Shown here: one piece after another, positions 3,001 through 30,846 of the stretch
How the letters are laid out: each line of letters begins with the position of its first letter
Position numbering within the stretch: the first letter of the stretch is position 1
From: a virus
Length of the DNA: 31,825 bases
Direction: 5' to 3' (one strand)
Virus record (IMG/VR): IMGVR_UViG_3300045988_159010
The notes under the pieces: generated by a model
What the model saw: the letters and a program-made list of their open reading frames with translations, nothing else
Databases searched by the model: none
Told to the model about the DNA's origin: nothing
Translations under genes and position numbers: made by a program

Positions 3001-3073
3001 TTTAAAACAATAGTTATCTGATTATATTGCTCCTAAAAATATAAAATTACGTGATTGGTATATCGAAGAATGA
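2..3073 (+). CDS. Large virion structural protein, 5' partial (>=1023 aa). Read in frame 2 through about 35 in-frame TAG codons; ends at TGA 3071-3073
   Basis: Frame 2 is open from the window start to TGA 3071, with no TAA/TGA in frame. The ORF-track pieces 1058-1282, 1604-1945 and 2522-2755 are all in frame 2 and each ends at TAG. The translation with TAG=Q is protein-like (beta-rich, Ig-like repeats, an LDPGF motif). A rho-independent terminator follows. Confidence 0.7.
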
Positions 3074-3102
3074 TGGATTTTTATCCATCATTCTTTTTTT
3101 TT
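3071..3102 (+). terminator. Rho-independent terminator after structural gene A
   Basis: Hairpin tgatgga-ttttta-tccatca followed by ttc plus a run of 9 T. Confidence 0.6.
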
Positions 3103-3122
3103 ATTTGGACCAAAATAGTATG

Positions 3123-3151
3123 TTTACAATATATAATTTTTAAAAATAAAT
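3123..3151 (+). promoter_or_regulatory. Putative sigma70/sigmaA-type promoter for structural gene B
   Basis: TTTACA (3123-3128), a 17-nt spacer, then ATAAAT (3146-3151). It lies about 30 nt upstream of the RBS AAAGGAGG (3166-3173) and ATG 3180. Confidence 0.3.
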
Positions 3152-3179
3152 AGAAATAAGAGTTAAAGGAGGTCAATAA

Positions 3180-6100
3180 ATGGCAGCGTCCACAATAAAT
3201 ATAAATAGAGTATATCCGCCTATTGTAGATAGTTCAATACCAGCATTTTTAGCAACTGCGGCCTCTATTAATATAAATTTTTCTTTACCTAAATCATTAA
3301 ATTATGAGGATGTAAAGAATATTTCAATTAAATTTGTATAGCAATCCAATAATAAAAGTATAATTAATACTGATAAATATTGGGATGGTATTATTTATAT
3401 GGAAAAGCCAACTACCTCTACTGATAATGGAATATATACAGTTACTGTAAATAGTTCAGATATTAAATTAGGAGATACAATAGGTTGGATTTCTAATACT
3501 TATTATAAGATTTAGATACGTTTTGGCTATGGAAAAATAGATTATACAGATAAAATTTCATTTTTTAAATGGAAAAAATCTTAGACTGTGGCTGAAGCTT
3601 TTTCAGAATGGTCTAATATTATAATTACTAAAGCAATTGATGATCCAATTGTTGAAATATTAAATAATAAAGATACTTCTTCATTAGATGTAGGATTTAT
3701 TTTAATATCAAGCAATAATGTAGAAGATAGCCGTTTTCCTAAATTTGAGGGAGGATATCAAAGCGATACTGAACCATTGGATAAATATCGTTTTAGATTA
3801 TATGAAGGTAGCTATGATTCAAAAAATCCTCCAAGTTCTGAACCATATTTATAGAGTGATTGGTTACAATATAATGGCGGAGGAAAAGATAAATATAGTG
3901 CTTTAGTCTCTTATAGTTTTAATAGACAATTAGATTAGACTGGAATAAAAATGTATTCATTGATTTTTGATGTTATTACAATGAATAATTATCAAAAATC
4001 TTCTGAATATTATAATTTTACTATTACTGAAAATTATTTAAAATAGTTATAGACTTTAGTATTTACAGTAAAAGATAATACTGAATCTACTGTATTATTA
4101 AATAAAATATCCGGAGCAAATCAAGTTGCTTTTTAGATGTATAAGGAATATTTTGGATTAAAAGGATAGGCTCCTAAATTTATTAAAGGTTATTATGATG
4201 ATGCAGATGGATATAATGCGGGAGATATAATTTATCAAACTGGTAATATTAATGAAGATAATATAGAAACTCATGTATTAAGTAAAATTACGAGAATAAA
4301 AGCAATTGAAGATTTTAGTCATAATTTACGAGCTGATGAAAATGGTAGTTTAGAGATCTATATTAAAAATAATCCTTATGAAGTAAAAGAAAAAATAACT
4401 ATTACTACTATCACTGGAGAAAAGGTAGAACGTGAAATAAATGTAGAAAAGTATCAATCACTTGATGGTACTTTTATTCTATCTAGAGCTTGTGAAACGG
4501 ATAATTATACTTAGTGGAAAGACATAGCTCAATTTGATTGGTATAATGAAACTAATTATGACGATAAATTGACTTTATTATATGAAGATTTTACAGTTGA
4601 AAGCGGAGTCAAATATAAATATGCTTTATAGAAATAGAATGCTGTAGGATTAAGAAGTGCTCCTAAATATGAATGTGATGATATTGATTCATCACCTGCC
4701 CATTGGTCTAATTTTTAGTATAGTTATATTTATAATAATGGTATTCAAGTTCGTTTAGATTTTGATTGTAAAACGAATAGTTATAAGCATACTACTTTAT
4801 TCCAAAAGCAAGATAGCTTAAATTCTAAATATCCAATTATTCTACGCAATGGATTAGCACATTATGCAGAATTTTAGTTAGGTGCTAAAATTTCTTTATT
4901 AAGTGATATTGATTCTTCTTTTTTAATGCGTAATGATGCTAAAGGTGGTTATTATCACAGTTGGTATGGGGATGTAGTTATTTCAAAAGATAAATATATT
5001 AAAACTTTTGAACGTGATTTATAGAATCCATATAATAATGATTATAGTATAAGACAATACAATATCCAAAATGCTTCTACATTTAATACTAATCCAACTA
5101 ATGATAATATATATATGGAACGTATATATAGGCATTGGGTAGAAGAATTTTTAAATGATGGTGGTTATAAATTATTTAAGTCGCCAACTGAAGGAAATCA
5201 TATAGTTACTTTAACTAATGTTACTTGGACTCCTCAAGCTTCTTTATATCGTATGATTTATGATTTTAATTCAACAGCTTATGAAGTGGCTGATTGCACC
5301 CCAGAAAATATTATTTTATATTAGATAAATCCATTAACTACTTTGTCTAATAATTCTAAATTAGCAATTTAGAATGCTAGTACAAAAACTAAAACAGTTA
5401 TTGGGCAAGTAGCTCGAACATTTAATGGAAAATATGCACAGGAAATTACTAATAATAAATTATCTATAATTGATAATAATAAATTTAATCTTACTTATGA
5501 TAATATTTGTAACGCAATAAAACTTCAAGAAGAGCAAGAAATAAGTGAAGATAGAAAATATCGAGTAAGAAGAATAAAAGCGATTTGGATAGAATAGTAT
5601 CCTAAACTAAATCTCAAAAATAAAATAGAATATTTAAAAAATAAAACTAGTTCAACTATGATAGGTCAGTTAACTAATGCAGTTGAATTATTAAGATGTG
5701 AATAGCTTTTATAGGAATATGAAAAAAATTAGAGTAATATTATTACTATGATAATAAATGGTAAAGAAATTTCTATGATGCCCAGTCGTATTTATCATTT
5801 GGATGATACTACTATTGATAGTATGTATTTAAAATTTACTCGTCCTGTTTTAATTAATTATATAGTTGATCTAGAGGAAGAAGATTTCTTAGAAATAGTG
5901 ACTGTTGCTAAACGTGAATTTGCACAATGGGGATAGCTTGGTGGAGTATTTACTGATACTCAAGATATTCTTGATAACCATTAGTTCTTTAGAAATGATG
6001 ATACTTATATAGTTAATGAAAAATACAATTATGGATTATATTCCACATTAAATTTAATGGATATAATAAAAGAAAAAGTACATACTTCTATTTTAAATAA

Positions 6101-6608
6101 TTATAGCGATCAAAAACTTGAATCTACTTTTGATTTATTATATAATAGTATAAATGAATTTTTAGATAAAGTTAAAGATGCTACAGAGTCCATCGAAGAA
6201 TTAGTAATAACTGGTACATAGTTATTAGAAAATTATAGACCTTTATCTGGATTAACTTTAAATAAATAGACTGACGCTTGGATGAATGGTTCAGATCAAT
6301 TAATTATATATAATTTTACTGGTATTGATAGTATCGAAATTGAAGCAGATGCTAATACAGATTTAGTTTTTTATAGAGAGTATGATCTTGATGCAACTAC
6401 TGGTAATTATCATCTTAGTTCTCCTGGCACTCATGTACGTATTGGACCTACTAATAAATTAGTTTTAAATCCTTTGAAAGATGAGATTGTTAAAGTAGAA
6501 TTTGTTAGACCTACTTATGCAATAATTAATTATAAATCTGTTTCGTCTTTAGAAGTTAAAAAAGGTAAGCAGAAAGAAAAAGATGAATCATAGGAGAAAA
6601 CGGAATGA
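3180..6608 (+). CDS. Large virion structural protein (about 1142 aa; tail or baseplate-like), about 30 in-frame TAG
   Basis: RBS AAAGGAGG plus ATG 3180 in frame 0. The ORF-track pieces 3588, 5115, 5748 and 6282 are all in frame 0 and each ends at TAG. Reading through by hand lands exactly on each next piece. Terminates at TGA 6606-6608, overlapping the next ATG (ATGA). Confidence 0.7.
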
Positions 6609-9600
6609 GAGAATATCTAAAAGATAGTGAGTTTTTAACTGCATTAGATGAAATGCGTATAAAAAAACATTATATCAAACTTACCATTTTATCTTTTGTT
6701 GATGAAAAACCTATACGAGAGGTATAGGGTATAGCAACGGCAGGCTCTATTACAGTTAATGGGTCTGCCGCCTTGCGCCGCACGATTAGTCTAACAATTA
6801 GCGGTATAGAAAATGAGAATGACATTAATAATATTGAAAATATTATTTCAATTAATAAAAAAGTAAAAGTAGAGGTAGGGCTTGAAAATCCATTTGCAGA
6901 TTATAAAAACTATGGAGATATTATTTGGTTTCCTCTTGGAACATTTGTAATTAATCAAGCTACTTCTTCTACTACAGCTTCTTCAGCAAATATTTCTATC
7001 TCAGGTAAAGATAAAATGTGTATGCTTGATGGTACTTGCGGAGGTACATTACCTTCAGCAGTTACCTTTCATGAAACACAATATGAAGATGAAAATGGAG
7101 ATATTACAATTGAGCAAGTGCCTATATTTACGATTATTAAAGAATGTGTAACACATTTTGGTAAAGAACCAGAATAGAATGTTATAATTAATGACGTAGA
7201 TATGACAGCTAAACTTAGTACAAAATATATGGGCCAAAATCCTATATGGTTTTCTAAAGATTATAAAAGTTTTGTAATTAGTGAAAACGCTCCTGAAGAT
7301 GAAAATTTTTTATAGCACAAATTTATTTATGGACAAGACGTAGGATATCAAGAAACAGATTTTACTTATCCAGGAGAATTAGTATTTTCTGCGGGAGACA
7401 CAGTAACTTCTGTCCTTGATAAAATTATTGAATCTTTAGGAAATTATGAATATTTTTATGATTTAGATGGTCATTTTGTATTTTAGTAGAAAAAGAATTA
7501 TTTAAACTATTATTATACTCCTATTACAGAAATAAATGATACTTATTATATAAAAGCTTTTTCAGATAGTAAATATTATTATACTTTTGCAAATGCTAAA
7601 GATGCATTATCTTATTATAATAGTCCTAAATATGAAAATATAAAAAATGATTTTATTGTATGGGGCGATAAAACTAATAGTAATGGAGTTACTAAAACTA
7701 TATAGTATCATTTAGCCATAGATGAAAAACCTCAAATTGATTTAGCTAATCAATATATGTGGGATGTAGTTCGAGGTAATGGTGACCATGCTTTTTATTT
7801 ATTTGAGTATAAAAAAAGTAATTATAATTAGACACCTGATAAAAAAGCTTTAGAAATTATTTATTCTGTTAATCATGAAGAAATGGTGGATGAAGTAATT
7901 GAATCTAACATTAAAGAAGATATAATTGAAAATATTTTAAAGAATTATTCTTTTTACACTGGTGATTAGTTTATTTTATATTATAAAATAATATTTTTAA
8001 ATTAGATAAGATATTATAAAATTACTTTATTAGATGGAGAAATTATAGGATTTCAATATCTTGAAGATTTAACTGATATTATTGACTTTACTCATTTAGC
8101 TCTTGGTGTTTATCCTAAAAAAGATGCTACTGATAGTTGGCCAAGTAATAATAATTCTTCTAATAAAAATAATAATAATAAAAATGATAGCTATAAAGAT
8201 GATAATACATTAGATCCGGGTTTTGGTATTCCTACCTCTTGGTGGCGTAAAGGCCAAGGAACTGGAGATTCAGAAAATTATGGTATTATGCTAATATCTA
8301 ATACAAAAGAGTTAGATCCAGATTTTATGGTACCAAATCCAGGTTCCACAGTATTAGATCCTGATTTTATGTTACCAGCAGACCAAGAAAATAATGCAAA
8401 TAAAAATAATAATTCTTCTAATGATAAGTCTGATAATAATAATAATAATACAACGATTAATGAATCTAAAGAATATTATTTAACTATAATAAAAAATATA
8501 GATAATAAAAATATTTTGGGTTATTATGATAGTGAAGGTTAGTGGATTTAGATTTATGAATTAACTGAAGAACTTTCATTAAAAAATATAGAAAATTTTT
8601 TAAATACCATTAAAATTAATTATTATATTAAAATTATTAAAGATATAAATTTTGATAAAGAAAATAAAGATTATGATTTTAATTTTATTGATTCTAATAA
8701 TTTAATTTCCATCAATAATACTATTGTTGCTAGTTATAAATTAATTAGTTACAATGAATCTAAAAAGAAGACAGAATATAGTTATATATTTCCTAATAAT
8801 TATTCAGTAATAAAAAATAAAAATGATGAAACTGTTATTACTGAAGAAGAACATAATGATTTAGTTAAAAAATTATTAGAATATTATAAAACAAATAAAG
8901 ATGATTTAACTTCAGATATTGAACTAATTTATAGTTATAAAGATATGGAAGAAATTCCTAAAGATGATCCATCTGAGTCAAATAAACCTGGCAATTCAGA
9001 AGATAATAAGATACCTGGCCCTACTCCTAGAGATCCAAATTATGGAATTATGCCTTTAGATATTTTAGATCCAGGTTTTACATTAAAACCCAATGAAGAG
9101 AATAATAATAAAGATAATACATCAAATGGAAATACATCGGGAGGAAGTAATTTATTGTTACCATTCTTAGATCCAGTAGATGGTAAAAAAGATTAGTTAA
9201 AAATCTTAGGTGATTAGGAAGATATAATAAAAAAAATTTTTATTTTACGTGATGATGGTAATTATTCATTAAATGAAATTATTGAAGAAATTACTAAAGC
9301 TTATAATTCTAATATTCTTGATTTTTCTACTATTAATGATAATAATAAAATTAAAATTATTACATATACTCCTGAAGAACCTCCTTTTGATTATGAAGAT
9401 AATTTTTATTTTACTTTAATTGGTACTCCTTGTAATGAATGGCGTGAAGAATTATTTAGACAAGCTTTATTAAATAATGAAAATGGCACTCAGAAAGGAG
9501 ACTATGATGATGAATTATTAGCTAAAATAGATGGTGAATACTTGTGGCGTAAACAAATATTTAATCCTTAGAATGAAACTTGGCATGAAGAATGGCGGAA

Positions 9601-10204
9601 TCAAATTGATTAGATTGAATCAAAAAATTCTTCTGAAGAAAATCAAAATGAAGAAATCATACCTGATACTTGGATTGGATGGAATCCTGCTATTTATCTT
9701 GATCCTAGCTTAATAACATATTGGTTAGATTTTATTGATGTAGATTAGTTAGTATCTAGATATTCAGTTAATAAAATAGGCCGGCGTACTAAAGCATTGA
9801 CTAAAACTAATATGAGTCTTTTATATAAATTAGAAGTGCCTGATATCATATTTTTTGAAAATACTGGGGAAGCAGATTTAATTCAAAAGATAGAAGATTA
9901 TACATTAAAAGGTTAGGCTTATTGTGCTTTAAAACCGGGGCAAATGAAATTATTTAGTTCTAGCGGAACAGGAAGTACGGCATTTGATTATATAAGAGAA
10001 ATGTTATATTAGTATTTAATTTATAATTTAACTGTTACTATTAACTGTGCGCCAAGATATTATTTAGAACCTAATAATTTAATCTATATAAATGATAGAA
10101 AAAGTAATATACAAGGGGAATTTGTTATAACTCAATATACTCTTCCTTTAACTTATAATGGAAATATGTCGATTACAACAAATGAAGCTTTAACAAGAGT
10201 ATAA
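6605..10204 (+). CDS. Large virion structural protein (about 1199 aa; may be more than one protein), with N/D/S-rich low-complexity linkers carrying LDP(G/D)F motifs
   Basis: ATG 6605 overlaps the preceding TGA. Frame 2 is continuous through the ORF-track pieces 6773, 8288 and 8945 (all frame 2, each ending at TAG) to TAA 10202-10204. The frame-0 ORF 9531-9713 is out of frame and is rejected. Confidence 0.55.
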
Positions 10205-10215
10205 GGAGGTAAATA

Positions 10216-10917
10216 ATGGGAATTCAATTTAAACAAATTGTTTATAATTTAGAGGACTATGGTGGTTCTGGTGGATTAGTTTCTACTAAATAGGGAGATT
10301 TATCTGAATTAGTATATAGTGCTGTATATTAGAATAATTTAAATGATTCTACTGAAACTACTACAAATGATGAAACAGATTATGAAAATAAAAAAATAGA
10401 TATTTTTGGGGCTAATATTTTAAAAGGCTTCAATAATGTAAAAAAAATAGGCATTTAGGCACCCCCTGGTACTAAATTCACTTTTAATAAAGCAACTACG
10501 CAAGATACTGGGGAATGGATTATGGTTGGACGTACTGGTATTTATGAACTTAATGATGATATTGTAATTAATTATTTAAGATTTCAACGTCCTTAGAATT
10601 ATATTATAAATAAAGAATTGAGTCAATAGTTATAGGCTACTGGGACTGGAATAATGAAAGTAGCAAGAGATACATTTTTATAGAAAATTAATGATTTAGA
10701 AAAAACATTAGGTTCAGCTCCTGACCGCACTGAAGCTGGTTCAGAATATTGGACTGAATATAATAATGCTCATCAAAATTATATAACTTAGTATAAAAGC
10801 GGTTTAGGAATTTATTTAAAAGGTAAAGCAGGAGTATATGTACCTGATCCAACTATTGTAGATTTATATAATATAATTATAGACTTTACTTATGAAACAT
10901 ATGAAGGGGGAGAGTAA
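10216..10917 (+). CDS. Virion structural protein (233 aa), about 9 in-frame TAG
   Basis: RBS AAGGAGG (10203-10209) and ATG 10216 in frame 1. No ATG-to-stop ORF of 60 aa or more was called here because TAGs occur every 20-40 codons. Ends at TAA 10915-10917. Confidence 0.55.
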
Positions 10918-10920
10918 TAA

Positions 10921-13818
10921 ATGTATAGCTTTTATGGTGGACAAAAAGGGCAAGACTTTAAAATAACACGAATATTTGCCAATCGTGCTATTGATATGGT
11001 TGGAGATTTAAAAGCAAGATGGACTTCTCCTGTGAATGTTGGAGATTATGTTTTTATTAATTATGGTGATCCATCTTATATGAATGAAGAAACCTCCAAC
11101 TATAATACTAATCTTCAGATAGATTTAAAAGATAGCGGAAAATCATATACTAATTCATTGTGGTAGAAAATCTATGTAGATAGAAATTTAACAGTTTCTC
11201 CAGATTTTCCTTAGAATGATAATAATATTTATATTTTCTTAAATTTAGAAGAAGATAATAAAGAAGAATATGGAGAATCTCTTCATGAAGTATCTGATTT
11301 AGAAAATGAAGAATGTTTTGGTTTTGGATATCGTTTAATTGCTTGCGTAACTGGCGTTACTCCTCGTATTCAAGTATTTCATTAGACTATAGATATTGAA
11401 GATGGAGATCCTTATGTTACTTTAGATTTAACCAATCCTGATACTCCTAAAATTAAATTTTATTTACAACGTGGATAGCGTATTGAAGAAGTATATAAAA
11501 ATATAGTTGGCTCTTAGGAAGATCCAAATGTTTATTTTAAAACTGAAGGAACTTATTTTGATAAAAATGGAAATATTAAGACAGCAACATTAACTAGGCC
11601 TCAATTAACTTTTGATTTGCCTAAAGCTCCAACATTTTTTTCTGGTTCTTTATTTGGATTAGGACCATTATCTTATTTTCATAATATGGGTAATTATAAA
11701 ATTTATGGATATCAAAATTATGATTATAAATATACAATTCGGAAAAATTAGGTTTCTATACTATCACGAATTTCGTATTATTTATTACATATCCTAAAAG
11801 AAGATAAAGTAATATATGATGAAAATGGGAATATTATTGATAATAAACATTTTTTCAATAATAATTTAAATGCAATATATGCTTAGCCTGATGAAAGAGT
11901 TTTATTTAATCCTCAAAATAATTTAAAAATAACTAAATTATCTTAGCAATTATATACTTATTTAGTTGATAATTTTAAATTATAGCAAATTAAAAATAAG
12001 TTAGAATATGAATGGTACTGGATAGATTCAGAATATAATCTAAGTAGCCAATAGAATTTATTTTATTTATTTAATGATATGTATCCTAGATCTTTGGTTT
12101 AGGTTGATCAAATAATATATTCTTTATTTAATATTTTATTAAAGTTAATAAATAATAATAAAAAAGATGACATTAGTTCTGTATATTATTTTGAAAATAG
12201 TAGTATAGCTAATTATTGTTTATCAATATTAGCTGAATATGCTACATTAGGAGATCATTTTTATGATATAACTAATAATGGCTATAAAGCTGATTTCTAT
12301 ATAAATGAGCCAACTGGGAAAATTTATAGCTTATATGAGATAACTTCTTCTTAGATTACTGGCATTTATTTAGGGGCTATTACAGCACCGGCTCCATTAG
12401 CTAAAACAGAATTAGTTGATTCTTTTATTAAAGATAAAGATAATAGTTATATTAAAAATTAGATTGTAGTTGAAAGTAGTATTTTAGAAGAAGATAATAT
12501 TGGTACTTATTAGGAAATTTTTAATTTTTCCATTCCTAAATATCCTGATATATCAATAAAAACTATAAATGTTAAAAATGAATAGACTTATAAAGTATCT
12601 AATATAAAACCTATAAGTAAAAATATGGAACAAATCGATTTAGAAACTCCTTTGCCTATTCATATCCTTACTCCTAAAAATTCTGGATTAACTGTTTCTA
12701 TAGATACAATTAATAATAATATTGAAAAAGTAATAGGTAATAAAGAGAGTTATATTGGTCCTATTCTTTCTAAAAATGATTTATTTATTAATATTACAGA
12801 TAATTTAAGTGATTCTACACGTGGACATATTTTTTAGTATAAAAAAGATCCAGTCCAATCATTAGAAGATTAGGAGTTTTTATTTGATAATTGGGAAAAA
12901 ATTGGTACTTTAACTGGTTTGCCTGGAATCCCATTAGCTAAAAAAATTATTAATATAACTGCTGTAGAACATTTATCAAATAATATTGTTTATGAAGGTT
13001 CTGAGGGCAATGGTAATAATGATTATATTTTTAATTACAATATTTTAAAAACATATTATGTAGATCATGTTAATGATGGATTAGAATTTATTATCAAACA
13101 AATATTAAATGGAACTAAATTAAATCAAGAAGCAATAAAAAATGCAGGTAGTAGCACTCCATAGTTAATAATTAATTTTGGAGATAATGCTGGGGCTAAT
13201 TTGCCTGATTTAACAATTAATTCTGACAGTGGAGAAGTAATTCTTATTAATTTTTATAATCCTACATTAACTAGCAGTTATTGGGGACTTTATATTCAAA
13301 ATAATTGGGATTTAATATCTGTTTCAGGTAACAGCCAGGATTCTATTATTTCAATACAATAGAATCCTTAGCAAGAAATTAGTAAAAAAACTGCTTATTC
13401 TAGTTGGTATTTAGATACTCAATATTTAAACAATAATTTAGTTTGGAATAAATGGATTGGAATTACTACAAAAAATCTTGTAGATACTTCAATATCTATT
13501 GATGGAATCTCAAAAACAAATATTCCAAAATTTACAGCTAAAGAAGGAGATAAAATAACAATTCATACACTTAGTAGAAATAAATCTACAACGGAAATAG
13601 GAGAAATAACTAGTAAAATTTTTTATAATAATACGTTGATGAAAGAATCTGCTAAATGTTAGGTTGCTCCGTCAGAAGGATTATGGGGATATGCTGAAGT
13701 AACTTATGAATTTAACTTAAAGAATGATATATCTATTGAAGTCATAAGTGAAAAATATCCAGATTCTTCTCCTTATGTTTTTGGGCAAAATGTTTATATT
13801 ACAGATTATTTAGATTAA
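10921..13818 (+). CDS. Large virion protein (about 965 aa), likely tail fiber or receptor-binding protein; last big structural gene before the holin. About 30 in-frame TAG
   Basis: ATG 10921 in frame 1. The ORF-track pieces 10921, 12625 and 12919 are all in frame 1. The frame is continuous to TAA 13816-13818, followed by RBS AAGGAGG. Confidence 0.6.
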
Positions 13819-13831
13819 GGAGGAATTTTAA

Positions 13832-14239
13832 ATGGATGCTCAATTAGTTGCGCAAATATTTCAAATTTGTATTATTCCTTTACTTGGAATTTTAACGACA
13901 TTCTTAGTTACTTGGATTAAATCTAAAAAGGACGCTTTAAAGCAACAAACAGATAGTGAATTAGCTAAAAAATATTTAGACATGCTTGATAATACAATTA
14001 CTGATTGTGTTATTGCAATGAATTAGACTTATGTTAATTCATTAAAATAGCAAGGAAAATTTGATGGTGAAGCTTAGAAAAAAGCATTTACTGATGTTTA
14101 TAATAAAGTAATTGCTATTTTAGGTCAAGATGCTATTGAATATTTGAATTCTGCTGTTGGAGATCTCAATGAATATATTTCTTCTAAAATTGAGAAAGAA
14201 GTTAATTCAAATAAAATTACTCCAACAGAAACAAAATAA
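13832..14239 (+). CDS. Holin (LL-H / phage_holin_6-like; single N-terminal TM, then charged tail), 135 aa with 3 in-frame TAG
   Basis: RBS AAGGAGG plus ATG 13832. N-terminal TM segment FQICIIPLLGILTTFLVTWI. After TAG=Q the central region reads QTYVNSLKQQGKFDGEAQKKAF, which resembles the conserved core of LL-H family holins. Lies directly after the tail genes and is followed by a strong terminator. Confidence 0.6.
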
Positions 14240-14243
14240 TAAA

Positions 14244-14279
14244 ATGGGAGAACCAATGCGGTTCTCCCATTTTTTTTTA
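14244..14279 (+). terminator. Rho-independent terminator after the holin
   Basis: Perfect 9-bp stem gggagaacc / ggttctccc, loop aatgc, then a run of 10 T. Confidence 0.8.
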
Positions 14280-14401
14280 TGCTTATTTATTATATTAAAA
14301 TGCCCTAAATTTTTTCCCAAAAATTTTGACAAAATTGGGAAATTATTTGACAATAATTTTTATATACCTATGGAAAGAATAAATAAGAAAGGATTTTAGT
14401 T

Positions 14402-14833
14402 ATGAATTTATATCAAGGTTTTGGAAATAATCAAAGTTATTATCAACCACAAAGAGCAAATACAATAATACCTTCAAGTTAGTAGCAATAGCCAGCTTTT
14501 ATTGGGTTAAAAGGTCGGCCAGTTTCTTCATTAGAGGAGGCAAGAGCTGCTGCTATTGATTTTGATGGTTCTGTATTTTTCTTTCCTGATTTGGCTAATA
14601 AAAGGATTTATACTAAGCAAATTAATTTAGATGGAACAGCATCTATGAATATGTATGAGTATAAAGAAGTTCCTACTGAAGCTTTTAATTCATCTAATTT
14701 TGTTACTCGTTAGGAATTTGATGAAACATTAAATGATATTAAAGGTGCATTAAATATGATAGCTTAGTAGACTTAGCAGCAAAAACAATAGCCAAAAGTA
14801 GAAGAACAGTCTAAACCACAGATTAATTTTTAA
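14402..14833 (+). CDS. Hypothetical Q-rich protein (143 aa), 10 in-frame TAG
   Basis: Two TTGACA hexamers lie upstream (14326-14331 and 14347-14352), then RBS AAAGGA and ATG 14402. Frame 2 runs to TAA 14831-14833. With TAG=Q it reads SSQQQQPAF and IAQQTQQQKQQPKVEEQ, where TAG codons are interleaved with CAA/CAG. Confidence 0.55.
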
Positions 14834-14846
14834 GGAGTAATGAATT

Positions 14847-15083
14847 ATGCAGATGAATCCTATGTAGATTATTCAAATGATAAGAAGTGGGTCTAATCCT
14901 CAATAGCTAATGATGTCATTTTTATAGCAATAGAATAATCCAATGGCGAATAATTTGTTATAGATGGCATAGAATGGAAATATTAGTGGAATAGAGCAAA
15001 TAGCACGTAACATGTGTGCATAGAAAGGATTAGACTTTGATAAAGAATTTAGTTCCTTTAAGCAATAGCTTGGAATTAAATAA
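14847..15083 (+). CDS. Small hypothetical protein (78 aa) with 11 TAG codons (14%)
   Basis: RBS AAGGAG (14832-14837) plus ATG 14847 in frame 0, running to TAA 15081-15083. The translation MQMNPMQIIQMIRSGSNPQQLMMSFLQQQNNPMANNLLQMAQNGNISGIEQIARNMCAQKGLDFDKEFSSFKQQLGIK is natural only if TAG is a sense codon. Confidence 0.55.
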
Positions 15084-15109
15084 TATATTTATTAAAGGAG
15101 GACATTTTT

Positions 15110-15961
15110 ATGTTCAACACAAGTAATGGTTATAGTTTAGCTGATATTGCCGCGGCCACAGGCGGTAATGGATACCGTAATGGTGATGATGGTATGTGGG
15201 GTAATGGTGCATGGTGGATAATTATTCTTTTCCTTTTCTGCTTCAATGGCTGGGGCGGAAATGGCTGGGGTAATGGCGCCAATGGTTCTGGATATCAGGG
15301 AACTACAACAAGAGAAGAATTAACTTATGGCTTTGATGTAAGCGACATTAAGTCTGGCATTAATTCTTTACAGACAGGTTTATGTAATGGTTTTGCTGGC
15401 GTTAATAATAATTTATTAACTGGCTTTGCAGGCGTTACTGAAACTTTAAATGGAAATGCTCGTACCTTGCAATCTGATATTAGTAATTTAGGCATGAATG
15501 CTATGTAGAATACTTTTGGTATTACTCAAGCTATTAATGCTGATACTATTGCTAATATGTAGAACACAAACGCTCTTTCTCAGCAATTAAATAATATGGC
15601 AGCAACAAATGCTCATTGCTGCTGCGAGAATAAGAATCTTATTACATCAAGCTTCGCTGATTTAAATTATAATTTAGCAAGTCAAGCTTGTCAAAACCGT
15701 CAAGTAGTTAATGAAGGAGTAAGAGATATTATTGACAATACTAATGCTAGTATGCGTTCTATCCTTGATTTCCTTGTTCAAGATAAGATTGAAACTCTTA
15801 CTGCTGAAAATGCTACTCTTAAAGGTCAAATTTCTCAAAACTTACAGAATGCTTATTTAATAGACCAATTAAGCAGCAAAGCTCCTATCCCAGCTTATGT
15901 TGTTCAAAATCCTTATGCAGGAACTAATTATACTGGATGTGGATGCTAGTATACTGCTTAA
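15110..15961 (+). CDS. Gly/Trp-rich membrane protein (283 aa): GNGWG repeats, one TM (WWIIILFLFCF), Cys-rich C-terminus. 3 in-frame TAG
   Basis: RBS AAAGGAGG plus ATG 15110. ORF-track pieces 15110 and 15596 are both in frame 2 and are joined through TAGs. Ends at TAA 15959-15961. Confidence 0.55.
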
Positions 15962-15981
15962 TAAAGAAAAGAGGTTAAAAA

Positions 15982-16401
15982 ATGGAAATAACAGCTAATG
16001 CTTTACAAACGGTAAATGCCAATGGTAATGTAGTGTTTACTAATACCGCTGTTCCAGGTAGTTGCGCCATGGTTCATCGTGAAGGTAGCGGATTAGTAAC
16101 TTTACGAGGCATAACTAATCAATGTAGAGCCAGATTTAAGGTTACTTTTGGAGCTAATGTAGCTCTTCCAACTGGTGCAACTGTAGCTCCTATTTCTTTG
16201 GCAATAGCTATTAATGGGGAGCCTGTTGCAGAAACTACAATGATTTCAACTCCAACTGCAGTAGAATAGTTTAATAGTATTTCTCGTGCTTTATTTTTAA
16301 ATGTTCCACGTGGATGTTGCCAATAGATAAGTGTTGAGAATACCAGTGCTTCTGCCGTCAGTGTTGAAAATGCCAGTCTTATTATAGAAAGGGTGGCTTG
16401 A
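15982..16401 (+). CDS. BclA C-terminal-domain-like (C1q/TNF-fold) protein, 139 aa, 2 in-frame TAG
   Basis: RBS AAGAGG plus ATG 15982. The C-terminus ...SVENASLIIERVA closely parallels the Bacillus BclA / collagen-like exosporium protein C-terminus ...SIIIEKVA. The IAINGEPV segment matches the BclA beta-sandwich region IQVNGVPV. Ends at TGA 16399-16401. Confidence 0.55.
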
Positions 16402-16403
16402 CT

Positions 16404-16955
16404 ATGATGGAAAAATTATGTTAGATTAAAAATAGTTTAATAACTTTAGTTGAATAGCAAATGGCTAATCCTCAACAAGCAGATACCCATGAAATGGGAG
16501 AAGTTATTGATATGATTAAAGATTTGGCCGAAACTTGTTATTATGGATCAATCGTAGATGCTATGATAGGGAGTAAGGAAGAAGAAATTTATGGCATCGG
16601 TATGATGAAAGACCCTCGTAAACGTAAAAATCCATATCCTTATTATGTAAATAATGATTATTATGAAGATAAACATTATGGTAAGGATTATGATGGCGGA
16701 TATAACGGCTATAGTTATACAGGCACAGGCGGAATGAATGATGATAGTAAAAAAATGGGCCATAGCCCAATGAAGCGTAAATCTTACATTGAAAGTAAGG
16801 AACATCATATGGACTAGGCCCAATAGATGAGAGAGCTAGAAGATTATGCCCAAGTTCTAACTTCTGATCTTTTAGAAATGATTCAGGATGCTACTCCTGA
16901 AGAAAAACAATTATTACAAAGAAAGATAGCCACATTAGCTACAAAAATTGTATAA
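16404..16955 (+). CDS. Tyr/Gly/Asp-rich protein (183 aa), spore-coat-like composition. 6 in-frame TAG
   Basis: ATG 16404 lies 2 nt after the preceding TGA, in frame 0, and runs to TAA 16953-16955. It contains the ORF-track piece 16461-16817. Composition example: NPYPYYVNNDYYEDKHYGKDYDGGYNGYSYTGTGG. Confidence 0.5.
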
Positions 16956-16960
16956 GAATA

Positions 16961-17000
16961 AAAATAAGGGGAAGTAATTACTTCCCTTTATTTTTTTTAT
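16961..17000. terminator. Bidirectional rho-independent terminator at the convergence of the + and - modules
   Basis: Palindrome gggaagtaattacttccc with an A-run on the 5' side and a T-run on the 3' side. It therefore works as a terminator on both strands. Confidence 0.8.
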
Positions 17001-17002
17001 TC

Positions 17003-17434
17003 TTATACATCATGGACAGGTAATTGGATTGCCCGTTCATAATAAGTCTTTGCTTGACCATTTCCGCCCAAGCTAGTATAAACTTTATAAAATTCTACTA
17101 ATTGTTCGTACTCACCATTTGTCATAAATCCTTGCTGGATATATGCTTTACATAATTGAGTCAATCTAAAACGATAAGAAGCTAAAATTACATCCATATG
17201 ATTATTTGCAATTTTATTGCTTTCTAGTACATACTTTCGTAATTCTTCAATTTCTTGACGAATTGGCTCAATATGAGTTTCAATTGTATTATCTAAAGTA
17301 CTATTCTCTTTTTCTTCAGTTAGTTTTTTATAAGTTTTCATTTTGCTATGAAGATGTTTGCAGAAAGCTAGGGCGCCCGCAGAAATTAATCCAAAAATAA
17401 TTTCAAGCAGATGTGTTGTGATAAATTCTAACAT
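17003..17434 (-). CDS. Hypothetical membrane protein (143 aa, N-terminal TM helix)
   Basis: Complete ORF with no internal TAG. RBS GGGAGGA. TACAAT and TTGGGA-like promoter elements lie upstream. TM segment LLEIIFGLISAGALAF. Confidence 0.5.
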   Translation of the reverse strand: MLEFITTHLLEIIFGLISAGALAFCKHLHSKMKTYKKLTEEKENSTLDNTIETHIEPIRQEIEELRKYVLESNKIANNHMDVILASYRFRLTQLCKAYIQQGFMTNGEYEQLVEFYKVYTSLGGNGQAKTYYERAIQLPVHDV

Positions 17435-17520: not shown

Positions 17521-18027
17521 TCATTCCCAATTTAATTCATCCTACTACGCTTTAAAATATGCAGTATATAAACATATAGCATCACAAACATCATCATTTG
17601 CTTCAATACCATATGTATCTTTTACATATTTTATGTCAAGAGGTTTAAGATTTTCACGTTTAATACCGCGGCCTGTTTTAATTCCTAAATTTTTTCGCCA
17701 TTCACTAGCTTGCATAAATTCTATGCTTTTGGAATTTATATTATCATTTACACTATGAGCACCAAGGACTATAGAGCCTTGAAGCCACATAAGTAAACGA
17801 GCTGTATCTGAGTAGCCATAAGCTTCTGGATGAACATCTTCAGCTATTAATTTTTCTATATTATACTATTTTACTAATTCAATAATTCCACTTTGTATCT
17901 TTTGGATACGGCTTACATTATTAGAAGAAGATGCAGTAATTAATCCATAAGTAATTAATTTACCTTTGTCATCTGATATAGCGTATCCAGTAGATTTTGT
18001 GGATAAGTCTAAAAATAAAAAATTCAT
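17521..18027 (-). CDS. ruvC: RuvC-like Holliday junction resolvase (168 aa), 3 in-frame TAG
   Basis: RBS GGAGGAG plus ATG 18027. The N-terminus MNFLFLDLSTKSTGYAI matches the RuvC catalytic-Asp motif, and the C-terminus has DDVCDAICL. The ORF track stops at TAG 17545, but two consecutive TAGs are read through to TGA 17521-17523. Confidence 0.65.
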
Positions 18028-18069
18028 ATAAATCTCCTCCTATTATAGAAGGAGATTATTATTTATTGA

Positions 18070-18618
18070 TTAATTATTAACGTCCTTACTGGTTGAACCA
18101 AATCCGCCAATTCTTGTACCTTTAGCTTTATCATCATCTGTAATAAGATAATTACGAATAATCCCTTGACCAATAATATCGCCCTTGGCAATTTCAATAT
18201 CAAAAGGTGAGAGATTAATTAATTGAAAATAAATATGACCCTCATTATCAGGATTGTTATAATAATCAGCATCAATGATGCCAACACTATTAGCCATAAT
18301 AATCCAATGCTTTAAGGGTAAAGAAGAACGAACAGATAGTTCAAGGAATTGTCCATCTTCCATATGGCACTTCATTCCAGTAGGGATAAGAGTAGGTTTT
18401 AAATTAAGTCCCTTAGTAATTTTAGCCATATCATTCAAAGAAATAATATCGTTAGTAGCTGCCCCATTTTTAAAAACTTCTACAATATGGGTATATGAAG
18501 GAATTACAACATCTTCAGCAGATGCAAAATCATAACCAGCACTATATTTAGTCTTACGTTCTGGCATTGGTAAATCCCAATTATTATATTTACTTACCTT
18601 TTCAAAATAAATACTCAT
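18070..18618 (-). CDS. dut: dUTPase
   Basis: Motifs SAGYD, GIIDADY and RIGGFGSTS. No TAG. Ends at TAA. Confidence 0.85.
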   Translation of the reverse strand: MSIYFEKVSKYNNWDLPMPERKTKYSAGYDFASAEDVVIPSYTHIVEVFKNGAATNDIISLNDMAKITKGLNLKPTLIPTGMKCHMEDGQFLELSVRSSLPLKHWIIMANSVGIIDADYYNNPDNEGHIYFQLINLSPFDIEIAKGDIIGQGIIRNYLITDDDKAKGTRIGGFGSTSKDVNN

Positions 18619-18893
18619 TAGTTAATTATAGTCTCCCCGTCAAAATTAGTTCTGGTTGTATAACAAAGTGAAATATGATCTGTCGGTTCTTTTTCATCAT
18701 TAAATTTTTTTACAAGGGTTACTTGATACCATTCATCAATAATCTCGCCCTTCTATTTACGTTCTTTCTTTGTAGAAGAATATTTAGCTAAATCATATTC
18801 TCTATCCTACTTAGCATTATTAATAAGCTCAGCTGCTTCTTTTTCTGTGTCTACTCTATATACTTCAGTAGTATTAATTAAATATTCAAACAT
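18618..18893 (-). CDS. Hypothetical protein (91 aa), 2 in-frame TAG
   Basis: RBS GGAGAA plus ATG 18893. Its TAA overlaps the dut ATG (TAATG). Confidence 0.45.
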
Positions 18894-18904
18894 ATTTTCT
18901 CCTA

Positions 18905-19165
18905 TTAATTTACATAAACTTTAATATTATTATTACTATACTTAGTAATTAAAGAATTTTCAATAGTTTCTTTAAGACCTTCGCCATAAGTTTGATTACC
19001 ATAAAGATGAATATCACTATCTTTATATTGTTCTGATAGCTTAGTTAAAGTATCACTAAGATTATCAAGACGGCAAGTGCAAACCATAATAGGCTTTTTA
19101 TCATTTGGACCTTGGTAATAAATAATTTGTGTTGTATTAAATAAATCAAAATAAGTAAATAACAT
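18905..19165 (-). CDS. Hypothetical protein (86 aa)
   Basis: Complete ORF. RBS GGAGA. Ends at TAA. Confidence 0.45.
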   Translation of the reverse strand: MLFTYFDLFNTTQIIYYQGPNDKKPIMVCTCRLDNLSDTLTKLSEQYKDSDIHLYGNQTYGEGLKETIENSLITKYSNNNIKVYVN

Positions 19166-19167
19166 AA

Positions 19168-19683
19168 TTATCTCCCTATCACTGGAACAATGCCAGCATC
19201 ATAATCAAATAAATGATAGCAATGAGTTTCATCGTTATTTGTAATCCAAATTTCAACTGCCCCAGAGCCACTATCATTAATGTCTTTAATCTGTCCTAAA
19301 TCTTTAATAATATCATAAACGGCGGAAGTCATATTAAGATAAGGATTATCATTGCTCAAGCTATTAGTTTCAAATACTGTATAATAATTTAGTTCATTAC
19401 ACAAAAGCATAAAATACTTATCAGAACTTTCTTGAACATAGGTATCAATAACTTCTAATTTTTTATCTATTTCTTCTGGAGTTAGTTCTTTCATTTGGCC
19501 AATTACACATTTATTTAATTCATAATTGCTCATTTTAAAATCGACGCCATCTGCTAATACACCCCATTCAGTGCCGGACCAGACATAATTATGGGTATCA
19601 GTAGTATTATAGAATACATCTCCTGCTTTTGGTTCTTTCTATATTGCTTCTTCTAAATTGGCAATCTTTCCTCTGTATCTCAT
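19168..19683 (-). CDS. Hypothetical protein (171 aa), 1 in-frame TAG
   Basis: RBS GGAG plus ATG 19683, which overlaps the nrdG TAA (TAATG). The frame continues through a TAG into the ORF-track piece 19168-19533. Confidence 0.5.
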
Positions 19684-20168
19684 TAATTCATCTCCTTTAA
19701 GTTTATAATATTTTGATTTTTACTACCTCTCATTGATAATGTAATATCTCTTTGAGACTGAATATATGGACCATCAATTAATACATCAGCTTTTTTAAGA
19801 ATTTCTTGAAGCTTACCATTAGTAGTTTGCTTAATTAAATCGTCATAATAATATCCAGTCCAAACATAAATTTTAGTATCAGGAAGCTTTTCTTTAATTG
19901 TATTAATAAGAAGTAGAGTGAGTAATTGATTTTGTTCACATAATGGTTCACCACCCATTATACAAAAATTTCTATGAATGCCATTAGCTTGAAGGGCTTG
20001 AAATATTTCTCCAAAAGTCTCATTAGTAAATTCTTTACCTTTTTCGAAATCCCAAGTTTCAGGATTATGACATCCAAAGCAATGATGTGGGCAACCTTGG
20101 GTGAAAAAGGAGACACATACTCCCGGAGCTGCGGCTATATCATTTTTTATAATTCCTGCGTATTTCAT
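19683..20168 (-). CDS. nrdG: Anaerobic ribonucleotide reductase activating protein (radical SAM)
   Basis: CxxxCxxC cluster GCPHHCFGC. The real start MKYAGI at 20168 follows RBS GGAGG and overlaps the upstream TGA (ATGA). No TAG. Confidence 0.8.
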   Translation of the reverse strand: MKYAGIIKNDIAAAPGVCVSFFTQGCPHHCFGCHNPETWDFEKGKEFTNETFGEIFQALQANGIHRNFCIMGGEPLCEQNQLLTLLLINTIKEKLPDTKIYVWTGYYYDDLIKQTTNGKLQEILKKADVLIDGPYIQSQRDITLSMRGSKNQNIINLKEMN

Positions 20169-20512
20169 TCTATAACCTCCCAAGAACAACAATATAAATC
20201 ACAGCAAGGTATAATTACTTGTTCTAACATTTCTTCATTATCATAATTTTTAGATATTTTTACCTTATTAAATCTATAACCTCTAACGTTATGTTTTATT
20301 GGAGTCCATATCCATTGTTCATTATTTTCTTGCCATTCTATACGGGTTTTCGATATTCTAATTGGTGTAATATTATTTTTATTCAAATAATCATAAACTT
20401 CTTGGGAATTATCCGTTATATAAGCACATATTACTATCTAATTAGAACAAGGATATTTTCTTCCTTCTTCCTAATTAAAATAGTTAGCTAAATCATAAAT
20501 TGAACGTCTCAT
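20165..20512 (-). CDS. Small Cys-rich hypothetical protein (115 aa) between nrdD and nrdG, 2 in-frame TAG
   Basis: ATG 20512 overlaps the nrdD TGA (ATGA). C-terminus CCDLYCCSW. The ORF-track piece 20165-20386 is its 3' part. Confidence 0.45.
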
Positions 20513-22773
20513 TCCATCTACCCCGTATGCTTTACTCGTGCTTCTACTTCTTTTTGCTTGCCATAATTAAAAGCTGTTTTGTAGTTTCCAGTTAAATAAC
20601 CAGTTACACGGCGTAATTGCTAGATATTAGTACTGCCGCATTCAGGACATTTATCATTAAATTCATCACAATATCCGCAATCAAGACAAGTATCATTAGG
20701 CACGTTTACTGCGAAATAAGGAATATCCTTATCCATAGCATAATTAACAATTTGTTCAAGAGCATCAATATTGTGTTTTACGGTGGAATCTAATTCTACG
20801 TATGTGATACATCCAGCAGAAGAATAACCAGTCAATTGGCTCTCAATGTCAATCTTATCAAAAGGTGACATTTTTTTCCAAACGGGAACATGAATACTGT
20901 TAGTAAAAAATTCTTTATCAGAGACATTAGGGATAATACCATATTTCTCTTTAAATTTAGTCATTGCCGTATAGCATAAATTTTCAGCAGGAGTGTAATA
21001 AACTCCAAAATTAAGTTTAAATTGTTCTTTTGCTTTTGCACAGTAATCTTTAAACATTTGTTCAATTCGTTTCGCTAATTCCATACCTTCTTTAGTTGTA
21101 TGGTCTTTACCAATAAGAATCTAAAGAGTTTCTGCTAAACCAATTTGTCCAATGGCTAATGTGCCATGCTTAAGGGCACTTCTAATTCCTTCTTCTGGAA
21201 TATAGCCAGCCATTAAATTATTTTCATACATAAATTTAGCAGACTTAGGATCTTGAGAGCAAATCCAATCAAAACGCTCCATTAATTGAATGCGAGCTTC
21301 ATTAATTTTTCTATTTAATAAAGCCATAAATACTGGAATAATATCTTCTTCTTGCCCTTCTTCTTCACATTCTTTTTTAGCAATCATAGCTAAAGTAGGA
21401 AGAATAATAGTTACTGGACAAATATTACCACGGCCATCTTTTAACTAACCGAAACCGTTAATATCGTACCCATTGGCTGTTCTGCATCCCATTGTAGAAA
21501 AATAGGTGCGGGGGTCATTGATGTCATATCCAGCGTTCCCTGACCAATCAACATTTGCATAGTTGGGATATAATCTTTGGGCGGTGGACTATAGTGCGAG
21601 TTTAAACAAATCATAATTTGGGTCACCTGGTTCACGGTTAACTCCTTTCATGCATTGGAAAATACCACAAGGGAAAATAGATGTTTTATGCAATTTACCA
21701 ATACCTTCAATAGATACATCTAAAAGTGCTTTAGTAATCATTCTTCCTTCTGGAAGAGTACAAGTACCATAATTAATAGATGTGAAAGGTAATTGATTAC
21801 CAGAACGAGATTGTAAAGTATTAAGGTTATGATACATACCTTCTACTGCTTGATGAACTTCTTTTAAAGTCATATCCATAGCGTATTGATATACTTTATC
21901 AAAATCTCCAGCATCATCTGCTTCATTTAGATAAGCTGAATAATTATTAATCGGAATATCTATGATTTTTTTATAGGTATCGCTATCTTCTAAATAGTTA
22001 TCTAAATTCCAATTACAATTGCATAAGTATTTCATACCATCACGATAATGCTTATAAAAAGATTTACGAACATAAGGAACCATAGTCCAATCAAGATGGG
22101 TCGCACTAACGCCACCAAATTGAGAAAGACTTTGAATTTGGAAAATAACAGCCACTAATTGGAAAGCTGTATTTACTGAACCTGCTGGACGTACATCTGT
22201 CTGGCGTGTATTAAATCCTTTAGCAAGTAAATCATCAAAAGGTACACTTAAACAATTATGAGAACCAACATAATAAGCATCTAAATCATGAGTATAAATT
22301 ATATTTTCTAAATGATTTTTGCGTGTCATAGGAGATACAATATAATCTAAAGCTAATTGTTTAGTTACTACACTACTGGCTTCACCAATACGGCCACCAA
22401 ATGATGCTTCATCTACATTGGCGTTTTGATTTTTAATATCTTTGCCATCTAATTTTTTTCTAATGGCTTGGATAAAATCATCTTTCTTTTGTCGTGCTAC
22501 TTCTTTTTTATATCTATATCTAATATAAGCTCGTGCAACATCACGTCGTTCTGACTACATTAAATAATCTTCAATTATATCTTGGATATCTTCTACTTCA
22601 ATACTACCATCTGGACATTTATTTATCCAAGATTCAATATCATTGGCAATATCAGTAGCTGTATCATTTTCATATAACTATCCATCGATTTCTATAAATG
22701 CCTTATTGATAGCATTAATTATTTTATTTTTATCAAATAATACAACTGTACCATCACGTTTAATTATATACAT
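20509..22773 (-). CDS. nrdD: Anaerobic ribonucleoside-triphosphate reductase (754 aa) with 7 in-frame TAG
   Basis: RBS GGAGG plus ATG 22773. N-terminal ATP-cone MYIIKRDGTVVLFDKNKIINAI. C-terminal Zn-ribbon CLDCGYCDEFNDKCPECGS, then the glycyl-radical motif RRVTGYL just after a TAG. Ends at TGA 20509-20511. The ORF-track pieces 21589-22329, 21121-21387 and 20620-21084 are all in this frame and are separated only by TAG codons. Confidence 0.85.
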
Positions 22774-22784
22774 TTTAACCTCCG

Positions 22785-22828
22785 CACTAAATATAGTATA
22801 AATTTTTGAACTTATACTATATTTAGTG
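22785..22828 (-). promoter_or_regulatory. Tandem NrdR-box-like palindromes (17-bp perfect inverted repeat, 10-bp spacer) immediately upstream of the nrdD RBS
   Basis: CACTAAATATAGTATAA, a 10-nt spacer, then TTATACTATATTTAGTG. Each arm is close to the NrdR box consensus acaCwAtATaTwGtgt. The centres are about 29 bp apart and overlap the likely -10 region. Confidence 0.45.
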
Positions 22829-22864
22829 TTTATTATTAATTCATTATCTACTTTGGGTTAAGAT

Positions 22865-23434
22865 TTAGTACCAAAACCAATCATAATCTGTAATTATATC
22901 ACAGCATTTTAATCTATCTCTTTCCGTTTCATTAAATAAAATTTGCATATTATCAAAATTTATATTTTTAAAGTCTTCTTCATCAGCAGAATAACGTCTA
23001 ATAATTTCTTTGATATTAGGGTATTCTTCTCTATTTAATTGACGAAGGAAACGCTGTTTATCAGAAGCATGAATATAATATATTCGTAAATCAATTTCTG
23101 AAAAATTGATTAATGATCTAATCCCAGAAGGATTAAAAATACCTATATTAATTTTATCATCAGCTAAACATTTAATACCAGTTCCATACCACCAATTATT
23201 AAATTGAACATATTCAAGCATTTGATTATTATTTATCATTTGCTTAAAATCTTCTTCAGATATAAAATGATATTCTTTTCCTTCTGTCTCTCCCTCACGC
23301 ATTGGACGAGTTGTATAAGAAACAACAATATTCATAGGTAATTCATAAGCTTTTACTACATCTTTTAAAATAGTATCTTTGCCTGAACCGGCTTTACCTA
23401 TAAGTGCGACTAATTGATATTTTTTATTATTCAT
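22865..23434 (-). CDS. gmk: Guanylate kinase-like nucleoside monophosphate kinase
   Basis: P-loop GKAGSGKDT and the guanylate kinase signature TTRPMREGETEGKEYHFISEEDF. No TAG. Confidence 0.7.
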   Translation of the reverse strand: MNNKKYQLVALIGKAGSGKDTILKDVVKAYELPMNIVVSYTTRPMREGETEGKEYHFISEEDFKQMINNNQMLEYVQFNNWWYGTGIKCLADDKINIGIFNPSGIRSLINFSEIDLRIYYIHASDKQRFLRQLNREEYPNIKEIIRRYSADEEDFKNINFDNMQILFNETERDRLKCCDIITDYDWFWY

Positions 23435-23683
23435 TTATTATTCCTTCTATTAAAAGACTAAAAACAATATTTACCATTACAACAATTATAAGAACACGAT
23501 CCTAAAAACTATGTTAAAAGGCATAAGATATCTGGAGTATATACCATCCAATAATCATTTCCATTTAACTCTCTTATAATTACTCTAAGATAAGGAGTCT
23601 ATTCAAATTTAATTAAAATTGTTCCTCTAATTTCAATATATTGATGGGTTTTTAACAAATCCTATAATTCATCATAATCAATT

Positions 23684-27664: not shown

Positions 27665-27702
27665 TTCCCTACCTCCTTAATTTATTATTATTTTCTATAA
27701 AT

Positions 27703-27731
27703 ATTATATCATAAAATTTCATCAAAATCAA
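27703..27731 (-). promoter_or_regulatory. SigmaA-type promoter for dnaE
   Basis: On the - strand: TTGATT, a 17-nt spacer, then TATAAT. It sits about 30 nt upstream of the dnaE RBS. Confidence 0.5.
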
Positions 27732-27733
27732 TT

Positions 27734-28524: not shown

Positions 28525-28527
28525 ATA

Positions 28528-30829: not shown

Positions 30830-30846
30830 ATTTTTCTCTCTATCTA

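Follow-up and report, generated by a model that had tools for sequence, protein, structure and literature searches.

Borges et al. (bioRxiv 10.1101/2021.08.26.457843) proposed that late genes of recoded phages cannot be made before the code changes, and they put forward the idea of recoding as a lysis timer, arguing from lysis families that prefer the recoded codon. The phage studied here is represented by a stretch of 31,825 nucleotides (IMG/VR record IMGVR_UViG_3300045988_159010; hereafter referred to as the window). It resembles their phages in being a low-GC gut phage whose TAG codons cluster in the structural and lysis genes and are less frequent in the replication genes. Unlike their lysis families, the holin-family gene of the window is under-recoded, and neither a 'code change module', which they described, nor a suppressor tRNA was found near it. 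Their study was reportedly published later in Nat Microbiol (2022). The lysis-timer idea is therefore not new, and the gene described below is another instance of a known phenomenon.

Judged by the polymerase sequence (42% identity), the nearest described recoded phage is Phass-1, whose group (OQ749652; NCBI 'Caudoviricetes code 15 clade') likewise consists of TAG-recoded large siphophages of the human gut. Phass-1 and the present phage both encode, besides DNA polymerase III alpha, a class III ribonucleotide reductase and a dUTPase. The tape measure protein of Phass-1 has about 3,100–3,150 residues, and one of similar size is found in a close relative of our phage, where the region upstream of that corresponding to the window (L108:4–9306, + strand) contains a tape-measure-like ORF of at least 3,100 residues with 108 in-frame TAG codons. 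The 136-kb Phass-1 genome has two tRNA-Sup-CTA genes just 5′ of nrdD, whereas the window has no tRNA at this place. In the Phass-1 study (PMC10607447), the holin ORF carries a suppressor TAG in two of the three genomes, and it is listed with other ORFs in which such TAGs occur in only part of the genomes of a genus; the trait is thus variable, as it is in the present phage. A tblastn search of the Phass-1 record with the window holin gave no match.

The holins of the Holin_LLH/PHROG 13712 type, including those of FP_Lagaffe and FP_Brigit, share with the window protein a length of about 130 residues, an N-terminal transmembrane (TM) segment and a helical C-terminal part. The FP_Lagaffe and FP_Brigit holin genes are, by annotation, located directly 3′ of endolysin genes, whereas the window gene closes a tail operon and has no lysin gene beside it. 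The cultured phages with holin-family homologues use the standard code, whereas the phage of the window reads TAG as glutamine.

Genetic code of the window

The phage of the window uses genetic code 15, in which TAG specifies glutamine. When TAG was taken as a sense codon, the total length of window ORFs with 80 or more residues increased from 4,566 to 10,476 residues. Read-through of TGA gave only 4,873 residues, and recoding of TGA was rejected. With TAG as sense, 29 ORFs tile the window, 11 on the + strand (425–16955) and 18 on the − strand; they end with TAA in 20 cases and with TGA in nine, a count that is partly circular because the ORFs were delimited by these two codons. The + strand contains tail-like and unknown late genes, then the holin-family gene and then five small conserved genes. 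The − strand genes include those for dUTPase, NrdG, NrdD, a guanylate-kinase-like protein, DNA polymerase III alpha, a helicase, a Phage_lysozyme2 protein and a RecJ-like protein. TAG occurs in 22 of the 29 genes (all 11 on the + strand and 11 of 18 on the − strand), and its share of the glutamine codons is 47% on the + strand and 18% on the − strand.

Comparison with relatives agreed with this assignment. We aligned about 20 window genes codon by codon with those of six relatives. The codons opposite the window TAGs were TAG (464), CAA (66), CAG (39), GAA (17) and AAA (16), with any other codon occurring at most three times each. Where a window TAG was changed, the counterpart was CAA or CAG in 105 of 157 cases, followed by GAA or AAA. 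Public gene calls of near-identical contigs of 185–190 kb give the same gene lengths as in the window. Under translation table 11 the relatives' loci do not give the recorded products, which were therefore evidently translated with TAG as sense.

Neither a tRNA (ARAGORN) nor an Rfam family was detected in the window. No tRNA, suppressor or other, was found between 106.8 and 176.6 kb (about 70 kb) of a 188-kb close relative (IMG/VR contig 3300045988_152007), and no tRNA within 10 kb on either side of the gene in contigs retrieved by exact-protein look-ups. As no suppressor tRNA was found in the window or in these 70 kb, the manner and time of TAG decoding, and likewise a code 'switch' in this phage and its timing, are presumed.

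Phass-1, Enterococcus phages and SPbeta-like phages have DNA polymerase III alpha proteins with about 42% identity to that of the window, and YorF/YorH domains were found in this phage. The window belongs to a large (about 185–190 kb) gut siphophage of 28% GC, distantly SPbeta/Phass-like, whose host is probably a Clostridia-type Firmicute. The convergent + and − gene blocks are separated by a strong 16-bp hairpin with T and A runs on both strands (16960–16995), which looks like a bidirectional terminator. In relatives, nrdD is split by an HNH or GIY-YIG endonuclease ORF, a GIY-YIG ORF is present 5′ of the polymerase gene, and an extra ORF of 220–225 residues adjoins nrdG; these insertions, listed below, look like intron or homing-endonuclease polymorphisms.

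L102:18055–20729, mobile insertion in a relative
L103:13251–13820 and 18709–20711, mobile insertions in a relative
L088 and L090, about 16230–17003, mobile insertions in relatives

The holin-family ORF and translation beyond its TAG codons

The features of the holin-family gene are as follows.

13817–13823, + strand: Shine–Dalgarno-like AAGGAGG, 8 nt 5′ of the ATG, read directly from the sequence
13832–14239, + strand: holin-family ORF of 135 sense codons, with ATG at 13832 and TAA at 14237–14239, encoding an N-terminal TM helix and a three-helix C-terminal domain
13853–13915, + strand: single TM segment (codons ~8–28; Kyte–Doolittle)
14024–14026, + strand: in-frame TAG, codon 65, read as Gln
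14048–14050, + strand: in-frame TAG, codon 73, read as Gln, in a variable column
14075–14077, + strand: in-frame TAG, codon 82, read as Gln, in the conserved EAQKKAF motif
14241–14281, + strand: intrinsic-terminator-like hairpin with a 14-bp stem followed by a T run, directly 3′ of the gene

The AAGGAGG site overlaps the TAA of the preceding gene (10921–13818), and a second TAA directly follows the stop codon of the ORF. The reverse strand of 13832–14239 contains no ORF. A terminator scan gave eight sites in the region against 1.8 expected, the terminator at 14241–14273 being one of the two strongest. Since this terminator follows directly, the holin-family gene is the last of a long + strand block of tail genes. 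Beyond it, two small Gln-rich genes (14402–15083, + strand) have the highest TAG density in the window, with eight TAGs in 143 codons and eight in 78 codons; their homologues in two standard-code relatives (L012 and L051) are intact, with CAA/CAG.

An earlier note, made from the sequence alone, had placed the first TAG after residue 64, and this was the case: the first TAG is codon 65, the others are codons 73 and 82, and the ORF ends with TAA. The note had further described the product of termination at this TAG as a TM-only fragment. Kyte–Doolittle windows of 19 residues exceeded 1.6 only at starts 2–13, with a peak of 2.23 at residues 9–27, and the Lys-rich stretch IKSKKDALK comes after the TM segment. 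In the AlphaFold2 (AF2) model (pLDDT 91.5), helices span residues 3–74 (containing the TM segment), 79–109 and 112–128. With its one hydrophobic segment at residues 9–27, a protein stopped at codon 65 would have the TM helix and about 36 further residues of the next helix.

Read in the standard code alone, codon 65 would be a true stop, leaving a 64-codon ORF or a pseudogene with an untranslated frame downstream. This reading is extremely improbable in view of what follows the TAG. In codons 65–135, dN/dS was 0.03–0.09, as low as before the first TAG, and in the comparison with L001 it was 0, with no nonsynonymous change. Judged from these ratios, the frame 3′ of the first TAG is under purifying selection. 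A frame free of TAA and TGA for 135 codons was obtained in none of 20,000 shuffles of the region, and only 0.6% of the TAA/TGA-free runs in the six frames of the window attain this length. The dN/dS values and the shuffles together ruled out a pseudogene or a 64-codon ORF. The holin family comprises 2,408 representative clusters at E ≤ 1e-3, across which the C-terminal motifs are conserved. Among the 150 representatives listed, 110 have 120–140 residues, the shorter ones being fragments (contig-end cuts or internal-start calls), and homologues cut neither by a contig end nor by a gene call all have about 125–140 residues. No holin-family homologue ended at residue 64, the finding that, according to the earlier note, would speak against its proposal.

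The residues encoded at the TAG positions were also consistent with glutamine. Codon 65 lies in an NQTYV motif and corresponds to Gln in all 120 close homologues; this column has Gln in 90% or more of 91 representatives at 50% identity, and it does not vary in an alignment of eight sequences, among them those of three cultured standard-code phages and two MAG loci. The codon itself is CAA or CAG in L002, L003 and L006. The column of codon 73 varied among the 120 homologues (Q 97, L 15, E 4, A 2), and that of codon 82 was Q in 119 of them. At codon 82, L003 and L086 have TAG, and the remaining close relatives have CAA/CAG. Eight standard-code relatives, without TAG-dependent ORFs in their flanks (L012, L014, L015, L017, L051, L053, L057 and L069), have CAA/CAG at positions 65 and 82 of a gene for the same full-length protein, which also counts against a true stop at codon 65; L012 and L051 have, in addition, downstream synteny in common with the window. 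This answers the check that the earlier note had suggested for relatives that lack recoding, and its basic statement, that the ORF cannot be completed without TAG decoding, is borne out, the full-length product being the conserved one.

Holin-family membership and the lysis-type genes of the phage

The product had been called a holin, and by sequence comparison it belongs to a family annotated as such. It matched the PHROG 13712 'holin' profile (E = 4.3e-29), residues 6–131 aligning with positions 9–133 of the 175-position profile, and its homologues in FP_Lagaffe and FP_Brigit are annotated as holins. The match to Pfam PF09682 Holin_LLH (Phage_holin_6_1) was 15.7 bits (E = 0.021), under the gathering cut-off of 24.9 bits. 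Holin_LLH is the most recurrent Pfam match across the family (10 of 91 representatives at E ≤ 0.01, the best at 8e-7), which marks the window protein as a distant Holin_LLH relative, not a member by the curated threshold. Its holin-class features are one TM segment at residues ~8–28, Lys-rich flanks and a helical C-terminal domain. Other searches added little. When 6 kb of sequence surrounding the gene were compared with GenBank phages by blastn, there were just two weak matches, both unannotated. Among PDB sequences, the profile matched nothing but designed helical repeat proteins, and Foldseek of the AF2 model against BFVD gave no match below E = 0.01. The fold is too simple to be informative.

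Using tblastn, we found homologues in Roseburia phage Shimadzu and in Faecalibacterium phages FP_Lagaffe and FP_Brigit, in each case directly 3′ of an endolysin gene. The endolysin domains are Phage_lysozyme2, Amidase_2 and SPOR in FP_Lagaffe, CHAP in Shimadzu and, by annotation, M15 in FP_Brigit. In the MAG contigs L098 and L100, the holin-family gene adjoins a double-M23 peptidase gene, and adjacency to an endolysin was thus seen in five distant phages or prophages in all. A lysis role of the family, assigned by association, appears well supported. In the present phage, the neighbours are the gene for a 965-residue late protein and genes without an assigned function, with no endolysin gene among them. 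Because of this, and because Holin_LLH is below the cut-off, we assign holin function to the window protein at the level of the family only.

In L098, a 226-kb Ruminococcaceae MAG contig, an 83-residue TM protein, the double-M23 peptidase and the holin-family protein are encoded in a three-gene island (3490–5390) flanked by ordinary bacterial genes (SpoVT/AbrB-like and PNPase), possibly a lysis cassette that has been domesticated or the remnant of one.

Three other lysis-type or membrane-protein loci were noted in this phage or its close relatives.

L194:9482–11253, + strand: lysis pair, at about 165.3–167.1 kb of IMGVR_UViG_3300045988_152007; also in L195–L198 and L202
30101–30829, − strand: Phage_lysozyme2 protein (PF18013, E = 8e-14) of 242 residues with a signal-peptide-like or TM N-terminus
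17003–17434, − strand: N-terminal-TM protein of 143 residues (PHROGs 4257 and 4105)

The lysis pair, of the canonical Gram-positive type, constitutes a second lysis locus, located about 36 kb from the holin-family gene in a relative whose holin-family protein is 98% identical to that of the window. Its endolysin (430 residues, CHAP and Amidase_2, PHROG endolysin E = 4.5e-57) is encoded with two TAGs. Directly after it is the gene for a 152-residue protein with two hydrophobic segments (2-TM), in which TAG accounts for four to five of six to nine (mostly seven) Gln codons; all six closest relatives have the first of these TAGs at codon 5. The genes 3′ of the pair in that block are TAG-free. This pair, outside the window, fits the published recoded lysis cassette better than the window gene does. 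The phage probably has a further holin-like gene besides the holin-family gene.

These observations bear on the function of the holin-family protein. A serious alternative, which we regard as possible though on the doubtful side, is that it does not form the pore itself. It would then be an accessory or regulatory lysis protein, similar to an antiholin or to XhlA, or else a late protein anchored in the membrane and unrelated to lysis, and the 2-TM protein would be the true holin. The predicted architecture, a single TM segment with a helical bundle of roughly 100 residues, would suit such a role. The alternative is also consistent with the position of the gene at the end of the tail operon and not beside a lysin, with the endolysin and 152-residue 2-TM genes about 36 kb off in close relatives, with the Holin_LLH score below the cut-off, and with FP_Brigit and L100, which have a family member plus a separate small multi-TM protein next to the endolysin. 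The strong PHROG 13712 match argues for a holin instead, as does the arrangement in FP_Lagaffe and Shimadzu, where, directly after the endolysin, no membrane protein other than the family member is annotated or obvious. Nor does a single TM segment speak against a holin, since one-TM holins, those of class III such as T of phage T4, exist.

The lysozyme2 gene at 30101–30829 lies between the RecJ-like and helicase genes, in the replication module, and has no TAG among its 14 Gln codons. Its product, which has the Phage_lysozyme2 domain in common with the FP_Lagaffe endolysin, may be a secreted lysin made before TAG is decoded. The gene at 17003–17434 is TAG-free in the window and in six relatives (none of seven Gln codons), and its product is weakly similar (E = 7e-5, pairwise) to a 117-residue protein of L100, whose gene has that of the M23 endolysin on one side and the holin-family gene on the other.

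TAG usage of the holin-family gene and the lysis-timer idea

The earlier note had presented the holin as a direct functional target of the recoding switch. The corresponding explanation would be that the TAGs form a selected translational gate, at which ribosomes stop at codon 65 until the code is switched, thereby setting the timing of lysis. Such a gate is in line with the hypothesis of Borges et al., with the need for TAG decoding to complete the gene and with the association of the family with lysis. Given the TAG-free candidate lysozyme gene at 30101–30829, whose product has a signal-like N-terminus, the holin would remain as the step open to gating. We nevertheless consider a selected gate unlikely, for the following reasons.

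Firstly, the gene is not enriched in TAG. Three of its ten Gln codons are TAG, as compared with a late-gene background of 0.48 (binomial p = 0.35), and in six relatives one or two of the ten are TAG, against about 40–50% in most adjacent genes. We further grouped 85 loci (L001–L085) into lineages at 90% identity, leaving columns 65 and 82 out of the count. In this set, found by peptide patterns back-translated with CAA/CAG and hence biased against TAG at the pattern positions, 13 of 15 recoded lineages had a lower TAG share in the holin-family gene than in its same-strand neighbours and one had a higher share (Wilcoxon p = 0.002); five of the 15 had no TAG in the gene. By the published criterion, the window gene is not a preferentially recoded lysis gene.

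Secondly, the TAG sites vary among genomes with an identical protein. The six contigs encoding the identical protein P0007 all have TAG at codon 65, but only two have it at codon 38, one at codon 82 and none at codon 73, which is CAG in all six. L004 and L007 have TAG at Gln codons 39, 74 and 99, and L004 also at codon 11. L002 and L006, which are near-identical strains with heavily recoded flanks, have no TAG in the holin gene, while TAG makes up 36 of 82 and 29 of 69 of their flanking Gln codons, respectively. Within the closest clade, most members do have TAG at codon 65, namely the window, L001, L005 and the six P0007 contigs; this is a point in favour of a gate, and there may be weak selection for at least one TAG in this clade.

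The position of the first TAG, just after the TM/juxtamembrane helix, and its frequency in the closest clade would also be compatible with partial read-through that gives both the 64-residue TM fragment and the full-length protein, at a ratio tuning lysis in the manner of a holin and antiholin. This possibility, in which a suppressor tRNA competing with release factor 1 would set the ratio, as a recoding-based analogue of the dual start of lambda S105/S107, seems very unlikely to us. The TAG at codon 65 is absent from L002, L003 and L006, the first TAG of other relatives is at codon 11 or 38, and among more distant lineages only the L024 and L042 clusters have TAG in column 65; the 64-residue fragment is itself hypothetical.

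Thirdly, the genes for replication and nucleotide metabolism (17521–31743, − strand) carry TAG as well: seven in NrdD, four in the helicase gene, eight in the RecJ-like gene (298 codons), three in a RuvC-like gene and one, at codon 636, in the gene for DNA polymerase III alpha (DnaE). The decoding of TAG must already operate when these genes are expressed, and so it cannot alone hold the holin-family gene back until the end of the cycle. Seven − strand genes are TAG-free, namely 17003–17434, dUTPase, 18905–19165, NrdG, the guanylate-kinase-like gene, a gene for a 161-residue protein and the lysozyme2 gene. Five of them were compared with relatives; four were TAG-free there also, and NrdG had one TAG in four of six. 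The TAG-free genes may be a truly early set.

Finally, the more typical pair of endolysin and 2-TM protein genes elsewhere in close relatives also weakens the case for a gate at the holin-family gene. The proposal of a special switch target was thus not upheld, in view of the under-recoding of the gene relative to its neighbours, the polymorphic TAG sites, the TAG-free alleles of L002 and L006 and the TAGs of the replication genes.

Taken together, we found no sign of selection for the TAGs of the holin-family gene as a lysis gate, and probably they are routine Gln codons in a gene of a code-15 phage whose full-length product is functional. The three TAGs would be ordinary Gln codons that interchange with CAA/CAG by drift, most often through one T/C substitution that gives CAG, and the full-length protein of 135 residues would be the functional product. 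Like all other late genes, the holin-family gene would be made only once TAG is decoded.

Had the holin been specifically gated, it would have offered a simple handle for testing the hypothesis of recoding as a lysis timer. Being one of many recoded late genes, with TAGs that come and go between near-identical strains, it is a poor test case, and the 2-TM gene, in which the TAG at codon 5 is conserved, would be the more promising candidate for a holin gated by TAG. The value of the holin-family gene is that it provides a clean and well-controlled illustration of TAG specifying glutamine in this phage lineage.
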